Assembly (NCBI GenBank): GCA_048881705.1
Contig: JBHLSH010000094.1
Coordinates: forward strand, 1 to 11,966
Reading direction: 5' to 3'
DNA from: Candidatus Heimdallarchaeota archaeon
Lineage (GTDB): Archaea; Asgardarchaeota; Heimdallarchaeia; Hodarchaeales; Hodarchaeaceae
DNA: 11,966 bases
The position numbers were made by a program, and so were the translations under genes. The first letter of the stretch is position 1. Each line of letters opens with the position of its first letter. Below are positions 102-10,071 of this stretch, piece by piece. The notes beneath the pieces were generated by a model. The model had not been told where the DNA came from, ran no database searches, and saw nothing but the letters and a program-made list of their open reading frames with translations.

Positions 102-782
102 ATGTTTGTGTCACTCGCAGGAGACGGAACCAACAAGGGAACTCGTGGAAAGATATTACAATACTTGTTGTTAAATGGATCGGGTCCTGGACCCACTGTT
201 AAACAGATAGCCAAAGCTATGGGATTGAGCTCAAATACTATCTGGAACTACCTGATTAGTCTAGAAAAAGATGGATACATACAGCGTTCTGAATTGAAAG
301 GGAAATCTGGCCGTCCAGCAATGCGATACACCCTCGTAGATAAAGGAATCGAATTATTCCCAAAGGTATACAAAGATTTCTGCATATACATTCTGGATGA
401 ACATGAAAAGCTCCATGGAAAGGACAAAACAATAGAGCTTCTCGAACGCATTGGGGAAAGAATTGCAAAAGACATAGAACTTCAACTAATGCGTCAAAGT
501 CAAAACATTGGACATCCAGATTCGTTAAAGCAGAAATTACTGAAATTTGTAAATATTTTGAAAGAATATGGGGTGTACCCCGAAATAACAGAAGAAAACT
601 CTTCTTATGACATAAAAACACACAATTGCGTCTTGTATGGGGTTATGAAGTTAAATCCATTGATATGCAAGATAGATGAGGTTTTCTATGCTCAATTGAC
701 AGATCGAAAGGTTATAAAAGACAAATGCCTCAGTAGAGGTGATAACCACTGTCTTTTTCGTGTTATGAAGGCAGAAGCCTAA
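102..782 (+). CDS. Winged-HTH transcriptional regulator, SufR-like/COG2345 (ArsR-type) family, with a C-terminal 4-Cys V4R-like sensor domain
   Basis: 226-aa ORF. HTH segment TVKQIAKAMGLSSNTIWNYLISLEKDGYI, family signature GRP..Y.L...G...FP..Y, and C-terminal HNC-X12-C-X19-C-X7-C ending RGDNHCLF. GAGG lies just upstream of the ATG. Confidence 0.85.
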   Translation: MFVSLAGDGTNKGTRGKILQYLLLNGSGPGPTVKQIAKAMGLSSNTIWNYLISLEKDGYIQRSELKGKSGRPAMRYTLVDKGIELFPKVYKDFCIYILDEHEKLHGKDKTIELLERIGERIAKDIELQLMRQSQNIGHPDSLKQKLLKFVNILKEYGVYPEITEENSSYDIKTHNCVLYGVMKLNPLICKIDEVFYAQLTDRKVIKDKCLSRGDNHCLFRVMKAEA

Positions 783-818: not shown

Positions 819-933
819 GAAACTAGAGATCCTTCATCAACAAAACTGCTTTTTGGAGTTCTTTTAAGCTGGATTTAGCCGCTAAAAAGGATTTAGATGA
901 AGTTTACATTGTCTCGTTTTTCAGCTTTTTTAT

Positions 934-948
934 GGAAAAATATAAATA
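934..948 (+). promoter_or_regulatory. BRE plus TATA box of the first DOMON-like gene
   Basis: GGAAAAA-TATAAATA with the TATA starting 62 nt before the ATG at 1003. A near-identical element precedes the paralog on the minus strand. Confidence 0.55.
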
Positions 949-1002
949 ACTTGAAAAAGGTACATCGTAAACATTCTCATAAAATATCAGAGTGATGAAT
1001 CA

Positions 1003-1941
1003 ATGAAAACTAAAATAGGAAGTTCGTTACGAATTGCATCCCTAATTGCCCTGCTTTTGTTAGGTGTCATGAGTACCATTGTACTTGTACAGGCTAACGG
1101 TGAACATGAGCATGGGGCACACCTTACCCTTCGAGCAACCGAAACGGATCTCACAACTATCGCTTTGGATGGAGATTCCAGTGATTGGGCTGCAGTAGGG
1201 GGACTTTCGTTTACTATTGTACCGATTGAACGGGATGAAGTTCCAAACGATGACAGACAGCTCGATGTAAATGTTCGGGTTGCATTTGATGAAGATAATA
1301 TCGCCGTGCTTGTTGAAATACAGGATAATTATGCGTTTAACAGCTCGGACCATCATTTATCGGGCCATGTAGCCGTTATGTGGGCAATAGATGAGGAAGC
1401 TGGACCCCACATGGGAATGGATGATGCAGGTGTCAGTCAGGGAAAGGTAGATATCTGGCATTGGGAGCTGGAGACAGCCCCAGGCACCGTCGTTGGCGGC
1501 AAAGGGACTGCCACCAGTGGGGACGATCCTATAGGTAATTTTGACGATGAGTGGGCCACGAGCTCAGAAAACAGGCATGATGATGCGGCGGAAAATTCCT
1601 TGTTCGGCAATTGGAACCATACCGATATCGCTGGTTCAAGAGGCCATTATGTTTTCGAAATGAAGAGAGCCTTACAAACCACGGATGACAATGATACGCA
1701 GTTTTCTGAAAACAGCGTTTACAAAATGGGCGTAGCCTATTGGGATCCAGATGAAACCCCGACAGGATGGGAAGACGATGGTCACCTTGTATCCGCGGAA
1801 ACTGTTGGATGGCTAAATATCGAATTGGGAGAACCTACTAGTCAATCAACGCCTGGCTTTACCGTAATTGCAATGGTCATTAGTTTGACTGCGGTGGCAA
1901 TTGGAACAGGGATTTTCTGGAAAAAAGGTAGAAAGAACTAA
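1003..1941 (+). CDS. Secreted DOMON/EB_dh-like putative heme-b-binding protein with PGF-CTERM-like anchor (paralog 1)
   Basis: 312 aa. Sec-type signal peptide ending VQA; motifs LDG..SDW, HMG (M137), VDIWHW, YVFEMKRAL, AYWDP and DGH (H261) fit a DOMON-type beta-sandwich with candidate Met/His heme ligands; no CxxCH; C-terminal TPGF + hydrophobic helix + KKGRKN; several N-X-S/T sequons. Family assignment is from motif recall, not a search. Confidence 0.78.
   Translation: MKTKIGSSLRIASLIALLLLGVMSTIVLVQANGEHEHGAHLTLRATETDLTTIALDGDSSDWAAVGGLSFTIVPIERDEVPNDDRQLDVNVRVAFDEDNIAVLVEIQDNYAFNSSDHHLSGHVAVMWAIDEEAGPHMGMDDAGVSQGKVDIWHWELETAPGTVVGGKGTATSGDDPIGNFDDEWATSSENRHDDAAENSLFGNWNHTDIAGSRGHYVFEMKRALQTTDDNDTQFSENSVYKMGVAYWDPDETPTGWEDDGHLVSAETVGWLNIELGEPTSQSTPGFTVIAMVISLTAVAIGTGIFWKKGRKN
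1443..1530 (+). repeat. 88-bp exact inverted repeat, left copy (partner 4341..4428)
   Basis: Base-by-base comparison: 1443..1530 equals the reverse complement of 4341..4428 with no mismatch. It encodes KVDIWHWELETAPGTVVGGKGTATSGDDP in both paralogs. Confidence 0.97.
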
Positions 1942-1958
1942 AATTCCTATTTCCCCCC

Positions 1959-1967
1959 TTTTTTTTT
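1959..1967 (+). terminator. Oligo-T tract, putative terminator of paralog 1
   Basis: C6 followed by T9, with the T run starting 18 nt after the stop at 1941. Confidence 0.45.
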
Positions 1968-2034
1968 CTCAACAGAATCAATATTAATTTTATTTGGTTA
2001 TAGGGAGAATGGTCAATTAATTGGTTGCAGCCAC

Positions 2035-3678
2035 TTGATTTATATGTTGAAGAGAAAGTTTGGCGTGATTTTAATCCTGCTAGTGCTGTTTTTATATCCA
2101 GGACCAGCTATTTCTGGTGCTTTGGGACATCAAAAAAACACAAGTGGCATAGAGAGGGTTCATGGTGAATCGAGCAGAAGTCTAGCCTTCGAGGTCATTG
2201 ACGCTTTATTAAGGGATTTGGTTCACACGGAGGATCAGGCCAAGTGGCCCCGTATTATCGATCCTCCTCCTCGGGATTGGGATGAAGATTGGAACCAATA
2301 TTTTTACGGGTATCATTGGGGTACTGCAGGTATCGCCGATGCCCTTCTATCATTCTATTCGACTTCATTAAATGGAACATTATTAAACTACGCAGAGGAG
2401 GCCGCAAACTTCATTATCGCTGGAGCTAGAACCAACGAAGAGGGGGGAGTCTATTGGTTTACAGGAGAAGGAACGAGAAACCGCTACATTGGTAAGAAAT
2501 ACGGGAATGCTGGGATTGCTTCCTTTTTTTTGCATCTCTATCAACATACAAAGAATCAAACATACTCCGATTTCTTAAACAAAACTTTAACGACCTTATT
2601 ATCCCAAGCAAATCCTGTTCCAGGGCTTAATGGCGGAGCAAGATACTGGGGGTACGGAATGAATGATATTATAGGTGTTACTGGCTTTAATTACGGTACT
2701 GTGGGGATTGTTGGTTCCTTTTTAGAAGCAAGCCGTACTCTAAATGAGTCTAAATGGCTAGATATCGCCTTAGCAGGGGCCTATTGGCTAGAAAATATCT
2801 CAACGAGCGATGATGGGATCGTAGAGGAATCAATGGCTGTTCCCTGGTCTACTTCGGCCCCCTACAATTCTCACTATTATACGGGTCTCGGAAGTGGGAA
2901 CGCTGGTGTTGGTTCTTTTTTCTTGGATCTATATAGGAGTACAGGGAATTCAAGATGGTTGGATAATGCAAAAAAGATAGGTAATTGGATTTTAGAGAAG
3001 ACAAAAAATGATAACTGGGGAAATGGAGGGGTAGTTTATTCTACTGGAATAGATAGTACTGACATGATTACTGGAATAGATGCTGGCGCAGCCGGCGTCG
3101 GAATGTTCTTATTGGAGCTTTACAAAGAGACGATGGAATTGAAATATGCGAACGGAGCGCTTGACGCATCCGATTGGCTGTTAAGAATAGCCATCAGATC
3201 TGACGAAGGAATTAAATGGCCCAAAGCAACTACTGGAGAAGATAGTCAGGTATATATGACTGGAGTCAGTTACGGAGCAGCGGGGATCGGAGAGTTCTTT
3301 GGCCAGTTGTACCAAGTTTTCGGTTGTGAGCAGTTCAGAGAAACGTTGATTGGAGCCGCAAGCTGGCTTGAAGGGCAAAAGACAGATCATGATAGATTTC
3401 CAGTAGCAACAGGCAAAAAAAGATTGACAACATCTCTAAGCCAGTATGGTCATCACCTATCATATTACGATGGCAGTGCTGGTATAGCATTATTCTTCCT
3501 TAGAGCCGCGGACCAAATAAATGCCACTCCTTTGTTTCCTGAATCGATCAGCTGCGTAGGAATAGGTTCGGAGAGTAATTTTAGGCCAGAAGATATTATA
3601 TTATCACTTTTAGGATTGGCGGCTTTGTTTTCGTTGATTGCCATTCCAATCATAAGGACAGGACAAAAAGACAAGTAA
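2035..3678 (+). CDS. Secreted, C-terminally membrane-anchored LanC-like (lanthionine synthetase C-like) alpha/alpha-toroid protein lacking Zn ligands
   Basis: 547 aa from the TTG at 2035; the ATG at 2044 is an equally likely start. Signal peptide, then seven GxxxG-xAGI/V repeats (YHWGTAGIA, KKYGNAGIA, FNYGTVGIV, LGSGNAGVG, IDAGAAGVG, VSYGAAGIG, YYDGSAGIA), each followed by a helical hairpin of the LY..T....(W/Y)L..A type. No WCYG or CHG motif. C-terminal hydrophobic helix followed by RTGQKDK. Confidence 0.8.
   Translation: MIYMLKRKFGVILILLVLFLYPGPAISGALGHQKNTSGIERVHGESSRSLAFEVIDALLRDLVHTEDQAKWPRIIDPPPRDWDEDWNQYFYGYHWGTAGIADALLSFYSTSLNGTLLNYAEEAANFIIAGARTNEEGGVYWFTGEGTRNRYIGKKYGNAGIASFFLHLYQHTKNQTYSDFLNKTLTTLLSQANPVPGLNGGARYWGYGMNDIIGVTGFNYGTVGIVGSFLEASRTLNESKWLDIALAGAYWLENISTSDDGIVEESMAVPWSTSAPYNSHYYTGLGSGNAGVGSFFLDLYRSTGNSRWLDNAKKIGNWILEKTKNDNWGNGGVVYSTGIDSTDMITGIDAGAAGVGMFLLELYKETMELKYANGALDASDWLLRIAIRSDEGIKWPKATTGEDSQVYMTGVSYGAAGIGEFFGQLYQVFGCEQFRETLIGAASWLEGQKTDHDRFPVATGKKRLTTSLSQYGHHLSYYDGSAGIALFFLRAADQINATPLFPESISCVGIGSESNFRPEDIILSLLGLAALFSLIAIPIIRTGQKDK
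3042..3081 (+). repeat. 13-bp direct repeat TACTGGAATAGAT at 27-nt period inside the LanC-like gene
   Basis: Copies at 3042..3054 and 3069..3081; both encode TGID. Confidence 0.85.
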
Positions 3679-3823
3679 AATCCAGCCCTAACTTTAAATG
3701 ATGTCCCCTGTTGCATAGGTAACCGATGGGCCCCCAGATTTAGTATAATATCTGTTAAAGTTAAAAATTTGGAATTTATCGGGCGCTAAGGTATGCCGCT
3801 CACGTATATTGTTCTAAGAAAGG

Positions 3824-3841
3824 GGCAGCTCAAACGCTGCC
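3824..3841. terminator. Short GC-rich hairpin in the convergent intergenic region, possible terminator
   Basis: GGCAGC-tcaaac-GCTGCC (6-bp stem), followed on the minus strand by CCTTTCTT. It lies between two convergent genes. Confidence 0.25.
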
Positions 3842-3929
3842 AATTGAAATCGTGAGAGTTCACGTGGCCATGGCTAGCAGCCAAGCAAATTCTTATATGC
3901 GATTCTAAGTCATTGGCCAGAGAATGGTT

Positions 3930-4832
3930 CTATCTACGTTTTAATAACCCTTTCTTTTGGAAAACCAAAACCGTAACAACACCCAACAGTGTTAGCGCTA
4001 TCTCAAAACCAGGTGCAGAACCTGTATCACCTAAATGTACTTCAAGCCATCCAGCTGAATCGGCTGAAATCATATGGCCACTATCTTGCCAACCTGTGGG
4101 GGTTTGGTCAGGATCCCAATAGGCAAGGGCCATTATATAGATACTCCCTTCTTTCATTTGGATATCATAGTCTTCTTCAGTAGTAGTCAAAGGCCTGACC
4201 ATTTCAAAAACGTAATCACCAGAAGCGTTGATTCCATTGTGAAACCCCGTGTGGTTCCATGCGCCCATTAGTGAATTTTCAGAAGTGTCGTCGTGTCTGT
4301 TAACTGGAGATGTCGCCCATTCATCGTCAAAATTGCCTACAGGATCGTCCCCACTGGTGGCAGTCCCTTTGCCGCCAACGACGGTGCCTGGGGCTGTCTC
4401 CAGCTCCCAATGCCAGATATCTACCTTTGTTGTCGCTTGGCCTTGGTCATCCAATCCCATATGGATCCCCGTATTTCTGTCTTGAGCCCACAAGACAGCA
4501 ACATGACCCGACATATGGGGATCCGACTCGTTAAAGTCATAATCATCATGTACAGTATATAATAAGGCAATATGCGTGGAATTAAACATAATTCGAATCT
4601 CAACATCTACTGTACGGAGCAGATCTAGTGATAAAAGCGATAATGATGCCCCCGGAACCTCTATCCATTCATCGCCGCTTCCATCCAAAACGAGATCCGT
4701 TAAATCGGACTTTTGGCCCTTTATTACAATGGTATAATGCGTGGCTCTTAATGGATTCACAATGCCCTGACCAAAGACCATTATGAATAGAAATGCATAA
4801 CAAATACTCTTAATTACAGTTGATCTTTTCAA
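3930..4832 (-). CDS. Secreted DOMON/EB_dh-like putative heme-b-binding protein with PGF-CTERM-like anchor (paralog 2)
   Basis: 300 aa, TTG start, signal peptide. Aligns by eye over its full length with 1003..1941 (HMG M125, VDIWHWEL, YVFEM, AYWDP, SGH H253). C-terminal APGF + hydrophobic helix + QKKGLLKRR. Confidence 0.78.
   Translation of the reverse strand: MKRSTVIKSICYAFLFIMVFGQGIVNPLRATHYTIVIKGQKSDLTDLVLDGSGDEWIEVPGASLSLLSLDLLRTVDVEIRIMFNSTHIALLYTVHDDYDFNESDPHMSGHVAVLWAQDRNTGIHMGLDDQGQATTKVDIWHWELETAPGTVVGGKGTATSGDDPVGNFDDEWATSPVNRHDDTSENSLMGAWNHTGFHNGINASGDYVFEMVRPLTTTEEDYDIQMKEGSIYIMALAYWDPDQTPTGWQDSGHMISADSAGWLEVHLGDTGSAPGFEIALTLLGVVTVLVFQKKGLLKRR
4341..4428 (-). repeat. 88-bp exact inverted repeat, right copy (partner 1443..1530)
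   Basis: Exact reverse complement of 1443..1530. Confidence 0.97.
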
Positions 4833-4876
4833 ATAAATCCAACCCGGTTTCGATCGGCGTTCATTAAGGGGACTTT

Positions 4877-4910
4877 TTTATATTTTTTCCTGAAAAAATG
4901 GAAAAAATAT
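4877..4910 (-). promoter_or_regulatory. BRE/TATA of paralog 2 overlapped by an 11-9-11 perfect inverted repeat
   Basis: The minus strand reads GGAAAAAA-TATAAA, with the TATA starting at 4882, 50 nt before the TTG. ATATTTTTTCC (4880..4890) and GGAAAAAATAT (4900..4910) are exact reverse complements. Confidence 0.55.
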
Positions 4911-5023: not shown

Positions 5024-6022
5024 TCAGTCTAGATTTTTATCTAGGATTTCTTTCGGAAGGTGCACCGCAAAACGACAAACGGTGTCTCCTTTAATCACAG
5101 ATTCTAGTAACTCAACCTTAATAGGATGTTGGTCAAGTACAGCCTCCCAATAGTTTTTATAGAACCCTCCACTGCAATTGCAGAATATGGGAGATATCGG
5201 TTTATCTTCTTCTAATAGGGCTTCACGAATCCAAGGATTGTGACAAAAATAGTATCGTTTCTGCCTATCCTCGTTTGATTTAAGAAACGGAGCTGTCATA
5301 TAGGGGATTTTTGTGACAGTTATTTTATTTCCAGTTCGAATCCCCGATTCTATTGTCGGGTCACTATTAACATAATTGATAACTGATGAATCGACTTCTT
5401 GAGTGAAAAACAGTGAATTCTCATGGAAATGTGATTCCAAGGTTTTCAGGAACTTCTTACGCTTTTTACGGAGGAATTCATCAATATTTTGACTCTCTTG
5501 AAACGTTTCCCGAGGTTTTTTGTATGATTCCGTATAACGGTTCCTTAATCCATTTGCAAAAAAACGACTGCTTTCTAAATCACCAAATCTTTCAAGGAAT
5601 CGCTTTACAAGGACTTTAGTAATCAAGGGTTTTTTCTTCGGATGTAATCCCAGGGGTGGAATTTCCACACCCTTAAAGATCTCATTTCGCACCTCCTCTC
5701 CGTACTCCTCGATTAATCTTTTTGAAAAGTTCTCAATCATCTCACTTCCGTCAAGTAATTCCATCGTGGCGATAATCATGTCTTTATTACCTGTGAAATA
5801 CCCATAACGAAGAAGCGATACATAATTTTCGTAAGAATTTTTACCAGATTTAATCAGATATGCCGAAAAATCGTGAAGGGCTTCATACGTGATATTATCT
5901 AGATATTCAGTTGAATTCATGATATGTTTCCGAAATTCTCTAAGGAGAGCGATTGAGTTATGGATTTTTTCTGGATCCAGGTTTTTTTCTTTCAAATAAC
6001 GCTTGAAAGCTTCGATCTGCAT
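5024..6022 (-). CDS. Hypothetical protein with a DUF6144/V4R-like Cys-containing C-terminal domain and a helical N-terminal domain resembling the integrase SAM-like (core-binding) domain
   Basis: 332 aa. C-terminal YYFCHNPW...FCNCSGG..K.YWE......VELLES...GD..CRF.V matches my recollection of the DUF6144/V4R-like pattern. The N-terminal AFKRYLKEKN...I...L..F pattern recalls recombinase N-terminal SAM-like domains. No catalytic R-H-R-Y motifs are recognisable. Confidence 0.65.
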   Translation of the reverse strand: MQIEAFKRYLKEKNLDPEKIHNSIALLREFRKHIMNSTEYLDNITYEALHDFSAYLIKSGKNSYENYVSLLRYGYFTGNKDMIIATMELLDGSEMIENFSKRLIEEYGEEVRNEIFKGVEIPPLGLHPKKKPLITKVLVKRFLERFGDLESSRFFANGLRNRYTESYKKPRETFQESQNIDEFLRKKRKKFLKTLESHFHENSLFFTQEVDSSVINYVNSDPTIESGIRTGNKITVTKIPYMTAPFLKSNEDRQKRYYFCHNPWIREALLEEDKPISPIFCNCSGGFYKNYWEAVLDQHPIKVELLESVIKGDTVCRFAVHLPKEILDKNLD

Positions 6023-6784: not shown

Positions 6785-7069
6785 TTAACCAAATAAAGGG
6801 ATTAGAGCGATTATGAGGGCTATAAGTCCTGGAAAGATAAATACAATCAGAACGATATCCCTTCGATTCTTTTCGTAAAGAATCCCCATGAAAAAGGCCG
6901 CGACAAGGCCCGCTTTTACAATTGCGATTCCTAGAAGTGAGGGAAGAACCAGGTTTTGACCCAAGATTTGGTCTAGGTAGCTGATAAGAAATTCTACTAA
7001 TGTTAACACTGCTAGCGCAATGAAAACTTCATTTGTAGGTCTGGTTTTCTTTGAAGTATCAGTACTCAT
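6785..7069 (-). CDS. coxD: Cytochrome c oxidase subunit IV (prokaryotic CyoD/CtaF type)
   Basis: 94 aa, 3 hydrophobic helices, motifs VF.AL.VLT.VEF and KAGLVAAFFM(G)ILYE. Last gene of the operon, with SD GGAGGT at 7079..7084. Confidence 0.85.
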   Translation of the reverse strand: MSTDTSKKTRPTNEVFIALAVLTLVEFLISYLDQILGQNLVLPSLLGIAIVKAGLVAAFFMGILYEKNRRDIVLIVFIFPGLIALIIALIPLFG

Positions 7070-7078
7070 CGTGTTATT

Positions 7079-7084
7079 ACCTCC
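7079..7084 (-). promoter_or_regulatory. Shine-Dalgarno site of coxD
   Basis: GGAGGT directly after the coxC TAA, 9 nt before the ATG. Confidence 0.8.
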
Positions 7085-7918
7085 TTAGATCAAATAGATA
7101 ATGGTGAAAAGCATTATCCACACCAAGTCCACGAAATGCCAATAGAGCCCTATAGCTTCGACTCCCGAATAATTCAATCTCGAATAACCTCCCTTGTGAG
7201 CTTTTATAGCAATGAAAAACACCATTATAATGCCCAAGAAGACATGGGCACCATGAAAGCCAGTTTGCAAATAAAAGGTGGCTCCAAAAAGACTCGAATC
7301 GGGAGTAAAGCCGCTAGCGAAAAGATTATAGTATTCGAACAGTTGTATAACTAGAAAAATCGTTCCCAGAATCGCGGTGAAGAATAAGAAATTCCGAAGC
7401 CCCTCTTTGTCATCCTTTTCTATTGATTCAACTGATTTGACCATAGTGACTGAAGATAATATTAGAATGAACGTGTTTACGGCAGTTAATGGGATATTCA
7501 AAACATCAGTCGCATTCGGCCACACGGGAGGGATTATTCCACCCTTTTGGAAGTGGAATCCGAACAATTCGATCAACAATTGCGCTAAATCTGCCCACGC
7601 TGTTGAGCGTAACCTTATGATAAAGGAGATTCCGATCAGTAAACCAAAGAATAGCACTTCTGATGCAAGAAAAATCCACATGAAGAAATGACGTGGGTAC
7701 TGTCGTTCTTCTTCAGCCTTTACTTTCTGTACTGATGTTTCTTGAACGATAAACAAAATCAAAAGAATAAGATAACTGAATAAAATAGCGATACCTATCA
7801 TGAATTGGCCAGAGGAGAGAAATGTCAACGCAATTCCAAGAGATCCTGCTGTTATAGCCAAGAACGGGGGCCAAAGGGAGGTTTTGTGAACCACAATCGT
7901 TTCGTTTGTATTTGCCAT
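7085..7918 (-). CDS. coxC: Cytochrome c oxidase subunit III (about 7 TM)
   Basis: 277 aa with motifs SLWP, FLASEVLFF, NTFILILSS, QLFEY, TGFHGAHV and LYWHFVDLVW. Confidence 0.95.
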   Translation of the reverse strand: MANTNETIVVHKTSLWPPFLAITAGSLGIALTFLSSGQFMIGIAILFSYLILLILFIVQETSVQKVKAEEERQYPRHFFMWIFLASEVLFFGLLIGISFIIRLRSTAWADLAQLLIELFGFHFQKGGIIPPVWPNATDVLNIPLTAVNTFILILSSVTMVKSVESIEKDDKEGLRNFLFFTAILGTIFLVIQLFEYYNLFASGFTPDSSLFGATFYLQTGFHGAHVFLGIIMVFFIAIKAHKGGYSRLNYSGVEAIGLYWHFVDLVWIMLFTIIYLI

Positions 7919-7925
7919 AAAACGT

Positions 7926-7931
7926 CCACCT
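7926..7931 (-). promoter_or_regulatory. Shine-Dalgarno site of coxC
   Basis: AGGTGG 7 nt before the ATG at 7918. Confidence 0.7.
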
Positions 7932-7933
7932 GC

Positions 7934-9487
7934 TTATGTTGTGTTTCGATCGGTTTGATATCCAAAATTAAATGGATTCTTGCCCGCCTGTTCGCCTTTC
8001 AAAAAGCTCTGTATTAAGTTGGTAGCCATTATTAACACGCCTATTGCCATTAAGATTGCTCCAATTGTAGCAATTTGGTTCCAAATCATGATCCAGAAGG
8101 CATCAGGCCTATAATCAAAATACCGACGAGGGAATCCATTTACCCCTGCCATTTCAATAGCACCGAATGTCATCATAGAACCTATCGTCCAGAACCAGAA
8201 ATGGAGATTTGCCAACTTTTTATTATACATTTTTCCCGTTGCTTCTGGGTAGAGATAATAGAGTATCCCGAAGAATGTAGAGACAATTCCCCCTATTGCA
8301 ATTAAGTGAAAGTGGCCAACAACAAAGACGGTGTCATGAAGTATTAAATCTAGAGGAACTACGTTAAGAAAGACGCCAGTTATTCCTCCTAACGTAAACC
8401 CAAATAAAAAACCTAGTGCAAAAAGCATAGGAGTATCGAATTTAATTCTGCCGCCGTAAAGAGTGAACAACCAATTGAAAGTTTTAATTCCACTTGGAAC
8501 AGCGATAATGAAAGTCCCTGCCATGAAGAAAAGGTTTACTTGACTGCCCAGGCCAACCGTGAAGAGGTGATGTCCCCAAACAAACGTCCCTAGGAAGGCA
8601 ATCACGGCTAATGCGACCACCATCGAAGTATAACCAAAAACATGCTTTGGGTCTCCATCATGAGCAAACATTGAAATAAGATAAGAGGTAATTCCCATGG
8701 CAGGAAGAACCATGATATAGACCGCCGGGTGGCTATACGCCCAGAATATGTGCTGCCATAGAACCGGAGAACTTCCACTCACGGAAGCGAAGAATATCCC
8801 TTGCGTACTTGCTGTGTTGGCAATAATCAACCGATCTAATTCAAGCAGAACCACTCCCGTTGTCAAAATTGGATTTGCAATAATCTGTATTATTGCAGTA
8901 ATAAAAATTGACCAAGTGAAGAGATCCAAACTTCGCCAGCCAAGCCCAGGTTTTCGCATGGTTAAGATCGTAAGAACAAAGTTTAATCCTCCTGCCATTG
9001 AGGAAATGCCTATCAGAATGATCCCTGCTACCCACAGTTCCACAGCAGAGCTTGTATAGATAGTGGATAATGGAGGGTATGCAGTCCATCCCACATCGAG
9101 AAATGAGAGATAAATGAATAATCCAGCAGGAATCAATAAGAAGAAAGCCGCATTGTTCCACCTAGGCCAGTACAAATCCTTGGCACCTATTAAGGTGGGT
9201 ATGTAATAATTGGCGAATCCAGCAGCCATAGGCATTGCAACAAGGAAAATCATTGCTGTGCCATGAAGTGAGAATAGTTCAGCATATGTACTGGAAGAGA
9301 CGATCGTCGGTCCCGGTAAAAACAACTCGATTCGAATTAAGAGTGCAAATAGCCCTGCAATCAAAAAATTGAGAATGGAAAAACCCAAGTATAATAATCC
9401 AATTGTTTTATGATTTGTGGTCCCAATAATTGTCAATATCTGGTTGATAGTGGACCTACTACCAGTAGTTTCAGTAGCCAGTGTCAT
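7934..9487 (-). CDS. coxA: Heme-copper oxidase subunit I, A2 type
   Basis: 517 aa. Metal ligands SLHG, HPAVY, WGHH and GHFH; also PRRY and HDT. YSHPAVY replaces GHPEVY, which is diagnostic of A2. D-channel Asp (DLYWPRWNN) and K-channel Lys (PSGIK) are present. Confidence 0.97.
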   Translation of the reverse strand: MTLATETTGSRSTINQILTIIGTTNHKTIGLLYLGFSILNFLIAGLFALLIRIELFLPGPTIVSSSTYAELFSLHGTAMIFLVAMPMAAGFANYYIPTLIGAKDLYWPRWNNAAFFLLIPAGLFIYLSFLDVGWTAYPPLSTIYTSSAVELWVAGIILIGISSMAGGLNFVLTILTMRKPGLGWRSLDLFTWSIFITAIIQIIANPILTTGVVLLELDRLIIANTASTQGIFFASVSGSSPVLWQHIFWAYSHPAVYIMVLPAMGITSYLISMFAHDGDPKHVFGYTSMVVALAVIAFLGTFVWGHHLFTVGLGSQVNLFFMAGTFIIAVPSGIKTFNWLFTLYGGRIKFDTPMLFALGFLFGFTLGGITGVFLNVVPLDLILHDTVFVVGHFHLIAIGGIVSTFFGILYYLYPEATGKMYNKKLANLHFWFWTIGSMMTFGAIEMAGVNGFPRRYFDYRPDAFWIMIWNQIATIGAILMAIGVLIMATNLIQSFLKGEQAGKNPFNFGYQTDRNTT

Positions 9488-9495
9488 TTCTGTTA

Positions 9496-9501
9496 TCTCC
9501 T
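9496..9501 (-). promoter_or_regulatory. Shine-Dalgarno site of coxA
   Basis: AGGAGA 8 nt before the ATG at 9487. Confidence 0.7.
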
Positions 9502-9507
9502 GATAAT

Positions 9508-10071
9508 CTAGCTGGCAACTATTGTTGCGAGCATATTAAAGTGATAATCGCCACACATCTCTGCGCATTGCACTCGGTATGTTCCTGGGGTCTCAATCTT
9601 TAACCAAAAAAGATTAAACACCCCAGGTATGGTGTCGATCTTGAATGAGAGGTCATAAACAAAGAAACTATGCACGACGTCAACGGAAGTCACATTCAGG
9701 ATGTACAACTGACCAACATCCAGATTTAAGACTCCCACTGAAATATTTCCCGCCTCCTTCCTAAACTGCCATTGGAACCTTGATCCGGTAACCCATACCA
9801 TTTCAGAATCTTCCTGCGGCAAAGTAACGATTTTTGTAACGGTGGGTAACGTGACCACAAAAGCAAATACCACCAAAATAATCGCAGCAAAAGTCCAAAG
9901 AAGTTCTAATCGATGCTCCTTCTCAATCTTCTTTCGCGGTCCTGGACTAGACTCTTTAAACCTAGTTATCATGTAGAAAAAGATACCTACTACCGTGAGG
10001 AAAAGAGCTCCTCCAATGATTATAGCTAGTAGGAGTAAGAATTCGATATCAGCAGTTATCGTGCTACTCAT
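9508..10071 (-). CDS. coxB: Cytochrome c oxidase subunit II (CuA-containing, no fused cytochrome c)
   Basis: 187 aa, two TM helices, K-channel entry Glu in RLELLWT, DVVHSF, and the complete CuA motif CAEMCGDYHFNM. No CxxCH. Confidence 0.96.
   Translation of the reverse strand: MSSTITADIEFLLLLAIIIGGALFLTVVGIFFYMITRFKESSPGPRKKIEKEHRLELLWTFAAIILVVFAFVVTLPTVTKIVTLPQEDSEMVWVTGSRFQWQFRKEAGNISVGVLNLDVGQLYILNVTSVDVVHSFFVYDLSFKIDTIPGVFNLFWLKIETPGTYRVQCAEMCGDYHFNMLATIVAS

Follow-up and report, generated by a model that had tools for sequence, protein, structure and literature searches.

How two strongly diverged genes come to share an identical stretch of DNA is the question raised by a contig of 11,966 bp from an Asgard archaeon (Candidatus Heimdallarchaeota archaeon). 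The window, which is the whole of this contig (C94), belongs to a metagenome-assembled genome (MAG; G000) of 3.96 Mb in 155 contigs, with estimated completeness and contamination of 90.9% and 7.5%, respectively. It contains two paralogous genes for putative exported heme-b proteins, gene A (1003..1941, + strand) and gene B (3930..4832, - strand), which are arranged head-out and tail-in around a LanC-like gene (2035..3678, + strand), and each of the paralogs carries one arm of an inverted repeat of 88 nt, located at 1443..1530 (+ strand) in gene A and at 4341..4428 (- strand) in gene B. Comparison with the same locus in a sister species suggests, with high confidence, that the patch has evolved in concert, through recurrent ectopic gene conversion over short tracts between the inverted copies of a single chromosome.

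The repeat itself, which was the starting point of the original prediction, was verified by a direct check: 1443-1530 is the exact reverse complement of 4341-4428, with no extension possible on either side. The exact tract consists of 29 whole codons plus one base, is in frame in both genes and encodes KVDIWHWELETAPGTVVGGKGTATSGDDP. Only two copies were found in the whole MAG, both on contig C94, and a repeat finder returned the longer inverted pair 1443-1622 / 4249-4428 with 84% complementarity. Identity had been predicted to end sharply at 1530/1531. Such an abrupt edge is present on the left (1442/1443), where 12 consecutive mismatches precede the tract (GVSQG versus GQATT at the protein level), whereas on the right 23 of the 26 bases past 1530 still match, up to 1556. 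From the comparison with the sister species, the homogenised zone is 114 nt with three mismatches (111/114 identical), spanning 1443..1556 (+) in gene A and 4315..4428 (-) in gene B. Outside this zone the two genes share ~54% DNA identity, from which the probability of a run of at least 88 matching bases is ~1e-21. Codon usage gave the same picture, as residues with degenerate codons that are the same amino acid in both proteins use the same codon in 39% of cases outside the zone and in 27/27 cases inside (P ~1e-11). The individual codon comparisons that had been put forward for the neighbouring peptides SGHVAV and WDP..TPTGW are likewise correct in our codon alignment. The 88-nt identity is far beyond chance.

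The comparison genome, G001, is one other species representative in the same genus (NCBI name ‘Candidatus Thorarchaeota archaeon’); it carries the pair on a contig of 87 kb, of which ~11.6 kb are colinear with the window (80-90% identity). A codon alignment was made of all four genes, A0 and B0 being genes A and B of G000, and A1 and B1 those of G001. In G001, too, the paralogs are near-identical across the same zone, and the left boundary of the zone is shared, to the codon, by the two species. A1 and B1 share a series of changes with respect to A0 and B0 (GAG/GAA, GCC/GCA, ACC/ACT, GTC/ATC, GTT/GTA, GGC/GGT and AAA/AAG). Inside codon columns 150-186 (1443-1556 / 4315-4428), nine sites are of the species type (A0=B0, A1=B1) and none is of the paralog type (A0=A1, B0=B1), compared with two species-type and 258 paralog-type sites outside the zone (Fisher P = 3e-15 for inside versus outside). 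The two species-type sites outside the zone are probably homoplasies. Two features of ectopic gene conversion are thus seen in the A/B zone, namely a grouping of paralogs that is limited to the tract, and identity at synonymous or otherwise unconstrained sites.

Synonymous divergence (dS) follows the same division. Between the paralogs it is saturated or undefined in the flanks of both genomes, and in the exact tract it is 0 in G000 and 0.10 in G001; between orthologs of the two species it ranges from 0.29 to 0.72 in the flanks and from 0.36 to 0.54 in the exact tract. Over the 87 compared bases of the tract, the number of within-genome differences is 0 in G000 and 2 in G001, and the number between species is 7-9. 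A rough Poisson calculation against the ~8 differences expected under independence, which assumes similar rates in both lineages, gave P values of 3e-4 for G000 and 0.014 for G001. Since fewer within-genome differences were observed than the ~8 expected, it is likely that conversion took place after the species split in each of the two lineages. Recent recombination between the copies, as originally proposed, is strongly supported by the sister-species site patterns and by dS, while the scar of a one-off conversion, offered at the time as one possible outcome, gives way to a recurrent process, given that G001 displays the same zone with its own shared substitutions. A third copy of the tract as a donor was sought in G000 and G001 and not found, each genome having two copies. 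GC-biased conversion was considered and rejected: GC content at third codon positions (GC3) is 0.62 in the tract versus 0.41 and 0.52 for the two genes, yet no consistent signal emerged. At six of the eight sites in the tract that differ between species, G001 has A or T where G000 has G or C.

Several points weigh against recurrent conversion. The gene pair was found in only two lineages, G000 and G001, in a search of 83 genomes of the class (G000-G082; 2/83, or 2/22 for the genus), so that ‘recurrent’ stands for n = 2 together with an approximate molecular-clock argument. Each of the two sequences is the consensus of a MAG, and bubble popping by the assembler could exaggerate the exactness of the match. 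Donor and recipient are not polarisable, the outgroups being only ~40% identical, and the recombination enzyme and the events are known by inference, none of them having been observed directly.

The second of these points leads to the main alternative named in the original prediction, namely that assembly or polishing generated the identity as an artefact, through repeat collapse, bubble popping or polishing with mis-mapped reads. Both genomes are indeed MAGs, one of them (G000) with an estimated contamination of 7.5%, homogenisation within each assembly could mimic the concerted pattern, and bubble popping of a near-identical pair would yield an 88-nt exact match. However, the copies in G001 retain 2-3 differences in the zone, which collapse would have erased. 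Furthermore, a Logan contig (L012), which supplies the third member of the protein cluster, is an independent assembly by a different assembler and is 99.8% identical to G001 (hence the same population, which is present in SRR20218960, and not a separate lineage), has the identical B1 tract, its three differences from G001 all lying outside the tract. Likewise, the two species share the left boundary to the codon, the zone is bounded by conserved motifs in each of them, and collapse requires prior near-identity, which itself needs conversion. With a second MAG that shows the zone with residual differences, and an independent assembly that reproduces the copy-B tract, an artefact is very unlikely as the source of the identity. 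Bubble popping could hide one or two single-nucleotide polymorphisms in the 88 bases of G000, which would leave the conclusion unaffected.

Selection at the nucleotide level, exerted by an embedded RNA or DNA element that keeps the two tracts identical without recombination, was also weighed. As RNA, the zone is predicted to fold slightly more stably than shuffled sequences do (z = -1.86), but this value is unremarkable, as equal or greater stability was reached by 11 of 200 shuffles, and no Rfam match was obtained. The 7-9 between-species substitutions are common to both copies, which purifying selection cannot produce, and because these species-specific changes are shared by both copies, this explanation is essentially refuted and we regard it as having next to no chance of being correct.

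Both paralogs encode putative exported proteins of a heme-b domain family. Gene A (312 AA residues) matches the Pfam family EB_dh (PF09459) with 49.9 bits, above the cutoff of 33.3, and gene B (300 AA residues, TTG start) scores 30.7 bits, slightly under the same cutoff. A single-sequence search against solved structures returned no match, while profile and fold searches succeeded: the family profile matches subunit C of nitrite oxidoreductase (NxrC, 7b04_C; E 1e-9), and an AlphaFold model of gene A (predicted local distance difference test, pLDDT, 79.6) matches the heme-b subunit of ethylbenzene dehydrogenase (EbdC, 2ivf_C; E 1e-10) as well as NxrC (7b04_C). The family match and the modelled beta-sandwich fold together place gene A within the EB_dh heme-b family as a predicted EbdC / NxrC-like member. 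Both proteins begin with a hydrophobic leader, in gene A a putative signal or transmembrane (TM) segment, and end in a tail composed of ..PGF.., a TM segment and basic residues, consistent with a PGF-type anchor; that of gene B resembles the Heimdall-CTERM model of NCBIfam below threshold (E 5.6e-4). In an alignment of 28 family members, M137 before the tract, H153 inside it, and H206 and H261 after it are invariant, and these four residues are candidate heme ligands.

Proteins A and B share 55% identity, and A shares 95% with its ortholog in G001. In a tree calculated with the zone removed, A and B stay sister groups (support 0.85), with B on a longer branch, and they are therefore true, old paralogs. 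In the comparison of G000 with G001, the rate of evolution of gene B is roughly double that of gene A, with nonsynonymous divergence (dN) of 0.06 versus 0.01-0.03 and dS of 0.47-0.72 versus 0.29. The pair has a patchy distribution, and EB_dh homologs occur in only six further genomes of the class, five with a single copy and one (G077) with two copies on different contigs. A scan of metagenomes for more lineages with the pair returned relatives at 39-45% identity only, with one match per locus. The closest non-archaeal homologs (~45% identity) bear Actinomycetota and Chloroflexota names, which suggests that the EB_dh family has moved laterally.

The enclosed gene encodes a putative LanC-like (alpha/alpha)6-toroid protein with hydrophobic segments at its N- and C-termini. 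It matches Pfam LANC_like with an E value of 1.9e-26, its GH76/GH88 matches are weak, and the NCBIfam matches are partial only, to the cyclase domains of LanL/LanKC/LanM. In a distant genome of the Thorarchaeia class (locus L009, G034:C2), a single EB_dh gene (1531-2412) is followed by a LanC-like gene (2728-3726) on the same strand. Because of this arrangement, the order of gene A followed by the LanC-like gene may be ancestral, and gene B may be an inverted duplicate that was added later.

The anatomy of the zone follows that of the protein family. It starts at the most conserved motif of the family, VDIWHWEL, of which V149, D150, W152, H153, W154, E155 and L156 are invariant among the 28 members; its middle (ETAPGTVVGGKG..TATSGDDP) is rich in indels and varies among family members; and the following conserved block, NFDDEW, marks its end. 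In the AlphaFold model of gene A, the zone opens with a core beta-strand (149-154) and continues as a low-confidence loop. Two-thirds of the tract thus correspond to a predicted surface loop that varies across the family, yet is identical in A and B. Because the loop is so variable elsewhere, its amino-acid identity in A and B comes from conversion and not from protein constraint.

The data presented above demonstrate the concerted pattern, where the zone begins and ends, that two species have it, and that the orientation does not vary; how enzymes carry out the exchange, what the motifs contribute to its start, and whether the identity is selected or neutral are inferred. In the scheme that we propose, the conserved motifs would provide the starting homology for strand invasion, which might proceed via homologous recombination of the RadA type, or possibly via template switching, and the ensuing short-tract, non-reciprocal recombination would homogenise the ~114-nt zone. 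Each conversion would restore perfect identity, making the next one easier, while the strongly diverged flanks would halt the heteroduplex, most sharply at the left block of 12 mismatched nucleotides. As an outcome, the strand and the loop co-evolve in both proteins, leaving the remainder of each gene free to diverge. Resolution as a crossover, which would invert the cassette, is mechanically possible, but is either very rare or selected against, and no inversion has been fixed.

Whether the 2.8-kb segment between the arms is in fact invertible, as had been proposed, can be considered in two parts. The geometry is right, in that the arms are inverted and in frame, and that a crossover between them would invert 1531-4340 and generate in-frame chimeras; the proposal that this amounts to a switch finds no support. 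The orientation of the cassette, including the LanC-like gene, is identical in G000 and G001, which is also the answer to the suggested comparison of orientation across related MAGs, and the Logan contig L012, spanning from the gene B tract into the end of the LanC-like gene, has the same orientation. As 258 sites against two group by paralog on both sides of the zone, no net inversion has occurred since the species split. A contig with the alternative junctions is absent from both MAGs. Chimeric or truncated A/B proteins were searched for among ~15 billion proteins, both near full length and shorter, and none was found, which is weak evidence given that few samples contain the organism. No recombinase is encoded in the window, as judged from Pfam and NCBIfam searches of all open reading frames (ORFs) of at least 80 AA residues.

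These observations bear on two kinds of switch. In the first, crossovers within the 88-114 nt of identity would flip 1531-4340 at an appreciable frequency, with gene conversion as a by-product. Such a homology-driven switch is consistent with the inverted, in-frame arms and the two open chimeras, with the similar promoter-like motifs of genes A and B, and with an identity run that suits homologous recombination (88 nt exact, 111/114 nt overall). Recurrent conversion also indicates that recombination intermediates form repeatedly at the zone, and for tufA/tufB of Salmonella, the analogue that has been studied best, up to 50% of the recombination events between inverted paralogs have been reported as inversions (PMC6735719). 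Nevertheless, a single orientation was seen in G000, G001 and the copy-B junction of L012, all but two of 260 informative flank sites group by paralog, neither an alternative-junction contig nor, with the limited weight noted above, a chimeric protein or fragment was found, and the homology is short next to the ~1.2 kb of tuf. An appreciably active switch of this kind is accordingly improbable, and we consider it similarly doubtful that, in a minority of the cells, recombination at the patch also ends in a crossover. If it did, the cassette would amount to an invertible element of an Asgard archaeon that is driven by homology and needs no recombinase, inversion would exchange the C-terminal halves and the anchors between the two surface heme-b proteins, the LanC-like gene would be placed behind the other promoter, and the patch would be maintained as a crossover site.

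The second kind, a shufflon- or inverton-like switch operated by a site-specific recombinase acting on the repeat, can be set aside almost completely. Its one point of support is the N-terminus of the product of ORF 5024-6022, which weakly matches Phage_int_SAM_5 (E 0.0024, below cutoff). This ORF was rejected as a recombinase, as the sub-threshold match is found in Pfam only, with none in NCBIfam, neither database identifies an integrase catalytic domain, and the C-terminus is Cys-rich and DUF6144-like. The window encodes no other recombinase, the repeat lies in coding sequence and, at 88-114 nt, is not a short crossover site, and a single orientation was seen. The shufflon-like surface-protein switch of the original prediction is thus unsupported, given the same orientation in both species, the absence of a recombinase from the window and the absence of chimeras from the protein collection. 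Recurrent short-tract conversion, with no net inversion of the cassette, remains the reading that we favour.

Further features surround the two paralogs. An A/T-rich promoter-like motif (…GGAAAAATATAAATAA) lies upstream of gene A (917..949, +), and a matching motif lies upstream of gene B (4874..4906, -), both being evident from inverted repeat I2 and from a four-way alignment of the upstream regions. The two motifs may act as promoters. The possibility that they represent a second conversion tract was rejected, since their variation in the four-way alignment is paralog-specific and not concerted. Immediately 3′ of the gene A stop codon is a C6-T9 run (1942-1975), which is conserved in G001 and resembles an archaeal oligo-T terminator; if it acts as one, it would give the LanC-like gene its own promoter.

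Two putative regulators flank the cassette on both sides and read toward it. The gene at 102-782 (+) encodes a winged helix-turn-helix (wHTH)/SufR-like protein with a MetOD1/ATC_hydrolase-like C-terminus, and the ORF at 5024-6022 (-), located beyond gene B, encodes 332 AA residues with a SAM-like N-terminus in addition to the Cys-rich C-terminus described above. A larger inverted duplication that includes these flanking genes was rejected, as no paralogy between the two could be detected (best E 0.099), a weak Cys motif at the C-terminus being all that they share. Also beyond gene B, a complete heme-copper oxidase gene set (6785-10071, -), consisting of a COX4-COX3-COX1-COX2 operon identified by Pfam matches and with a prokaryotic COX4, adjoins the surface heme-b genes. 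This region is colinear in G001 at ~90% identity, and the contig was attributed to Thorarchaeia in our analysis.

The locus is a clear example of concerted evolution on a micro scale in an Asgard archaeon, with a natural replicate in a sister species. Indirectly, it indicates that short-tract ectopic recombination appears to operate in Thorarchaeia (the class label used in our analysis), which are not known to have been cultured or studied genetically. It also places a rough upper limit of ~100 nt, flanked by conserved motifs, on the homology required, and it carries a warning for phylogenetic and domain analyses of this heme-protein family, in which the loop identity reflects conversion and not functional constraint. 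Finally, it is a place where inversion could be sought cheaply in read data.

Among known systems, shufflons and invertons (Rci, Hin/Gin, FimB/E) resemble the A/B locus in that a segment lies between inverted repeats and, on inversion, would join the coding ends of surface proteins in new combinations. They differ in having a dedicated site-specific recombinase, short crossover sites and coexisting orientations, whereas the A/B locus has no recombinase gene in the window and a single orientation. Archibald and Roger (2002) reportedly described patchy conversion tracts, mainly in conserved segments, for the chaperonin (thermosome) paralogs of archaea; that case differs from the present one in gene family, lineage and the inverted arrangement.

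Closer to the A/B pair are the tufA/tufB genes of Salmonella enterica and E. coli, which are also two inverted paralogs on the same chromosome that undergo non-reciprocal exchange and concerted evolution (PMC5485169, PMC6735719). Their conversion is RecA-dependent, and the intermediates of this exchange can also give rise to an inversion of the DNA between the two genes (PMC5485169, PMC6735719). However, the tuf genes are near-identical over ~1.2 kb and lie hundreds of kb apart, compared with ~54% DNA identity, ~114 homogenised nucleotides and a spacing of 2.8 kb for A and B, and, unlike tuf, the A/B host is archaeal and no inversion was observed. The archaeal counterpart is mtrA-1/mtrA-2 of Methanococcales and Methanomicrobiales, where paralogs at one locus are likewise partially homogenised while the rest diverges (PMC4632066). 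There, a whole domain of tandem direct copies is involved and the process is long-lasting (PMC4632066), whereas the A/B case concerns a 38-codon patch in inverted copies, and ‘long-lasting’ cannot be claimed for it, as the pattern is present in two sister species only. Concerted evolution in prokaryotes, where long-lasting cases are rare, has been surveyed more broadly (PMC6053082). The A/B locus is therefore an instance of a known process, conversion between paralogs, and no new kind of system; it differs from the cases above in the very small size of the tract, the extreme divergence of the genes in which it lies, and the Asgard host.

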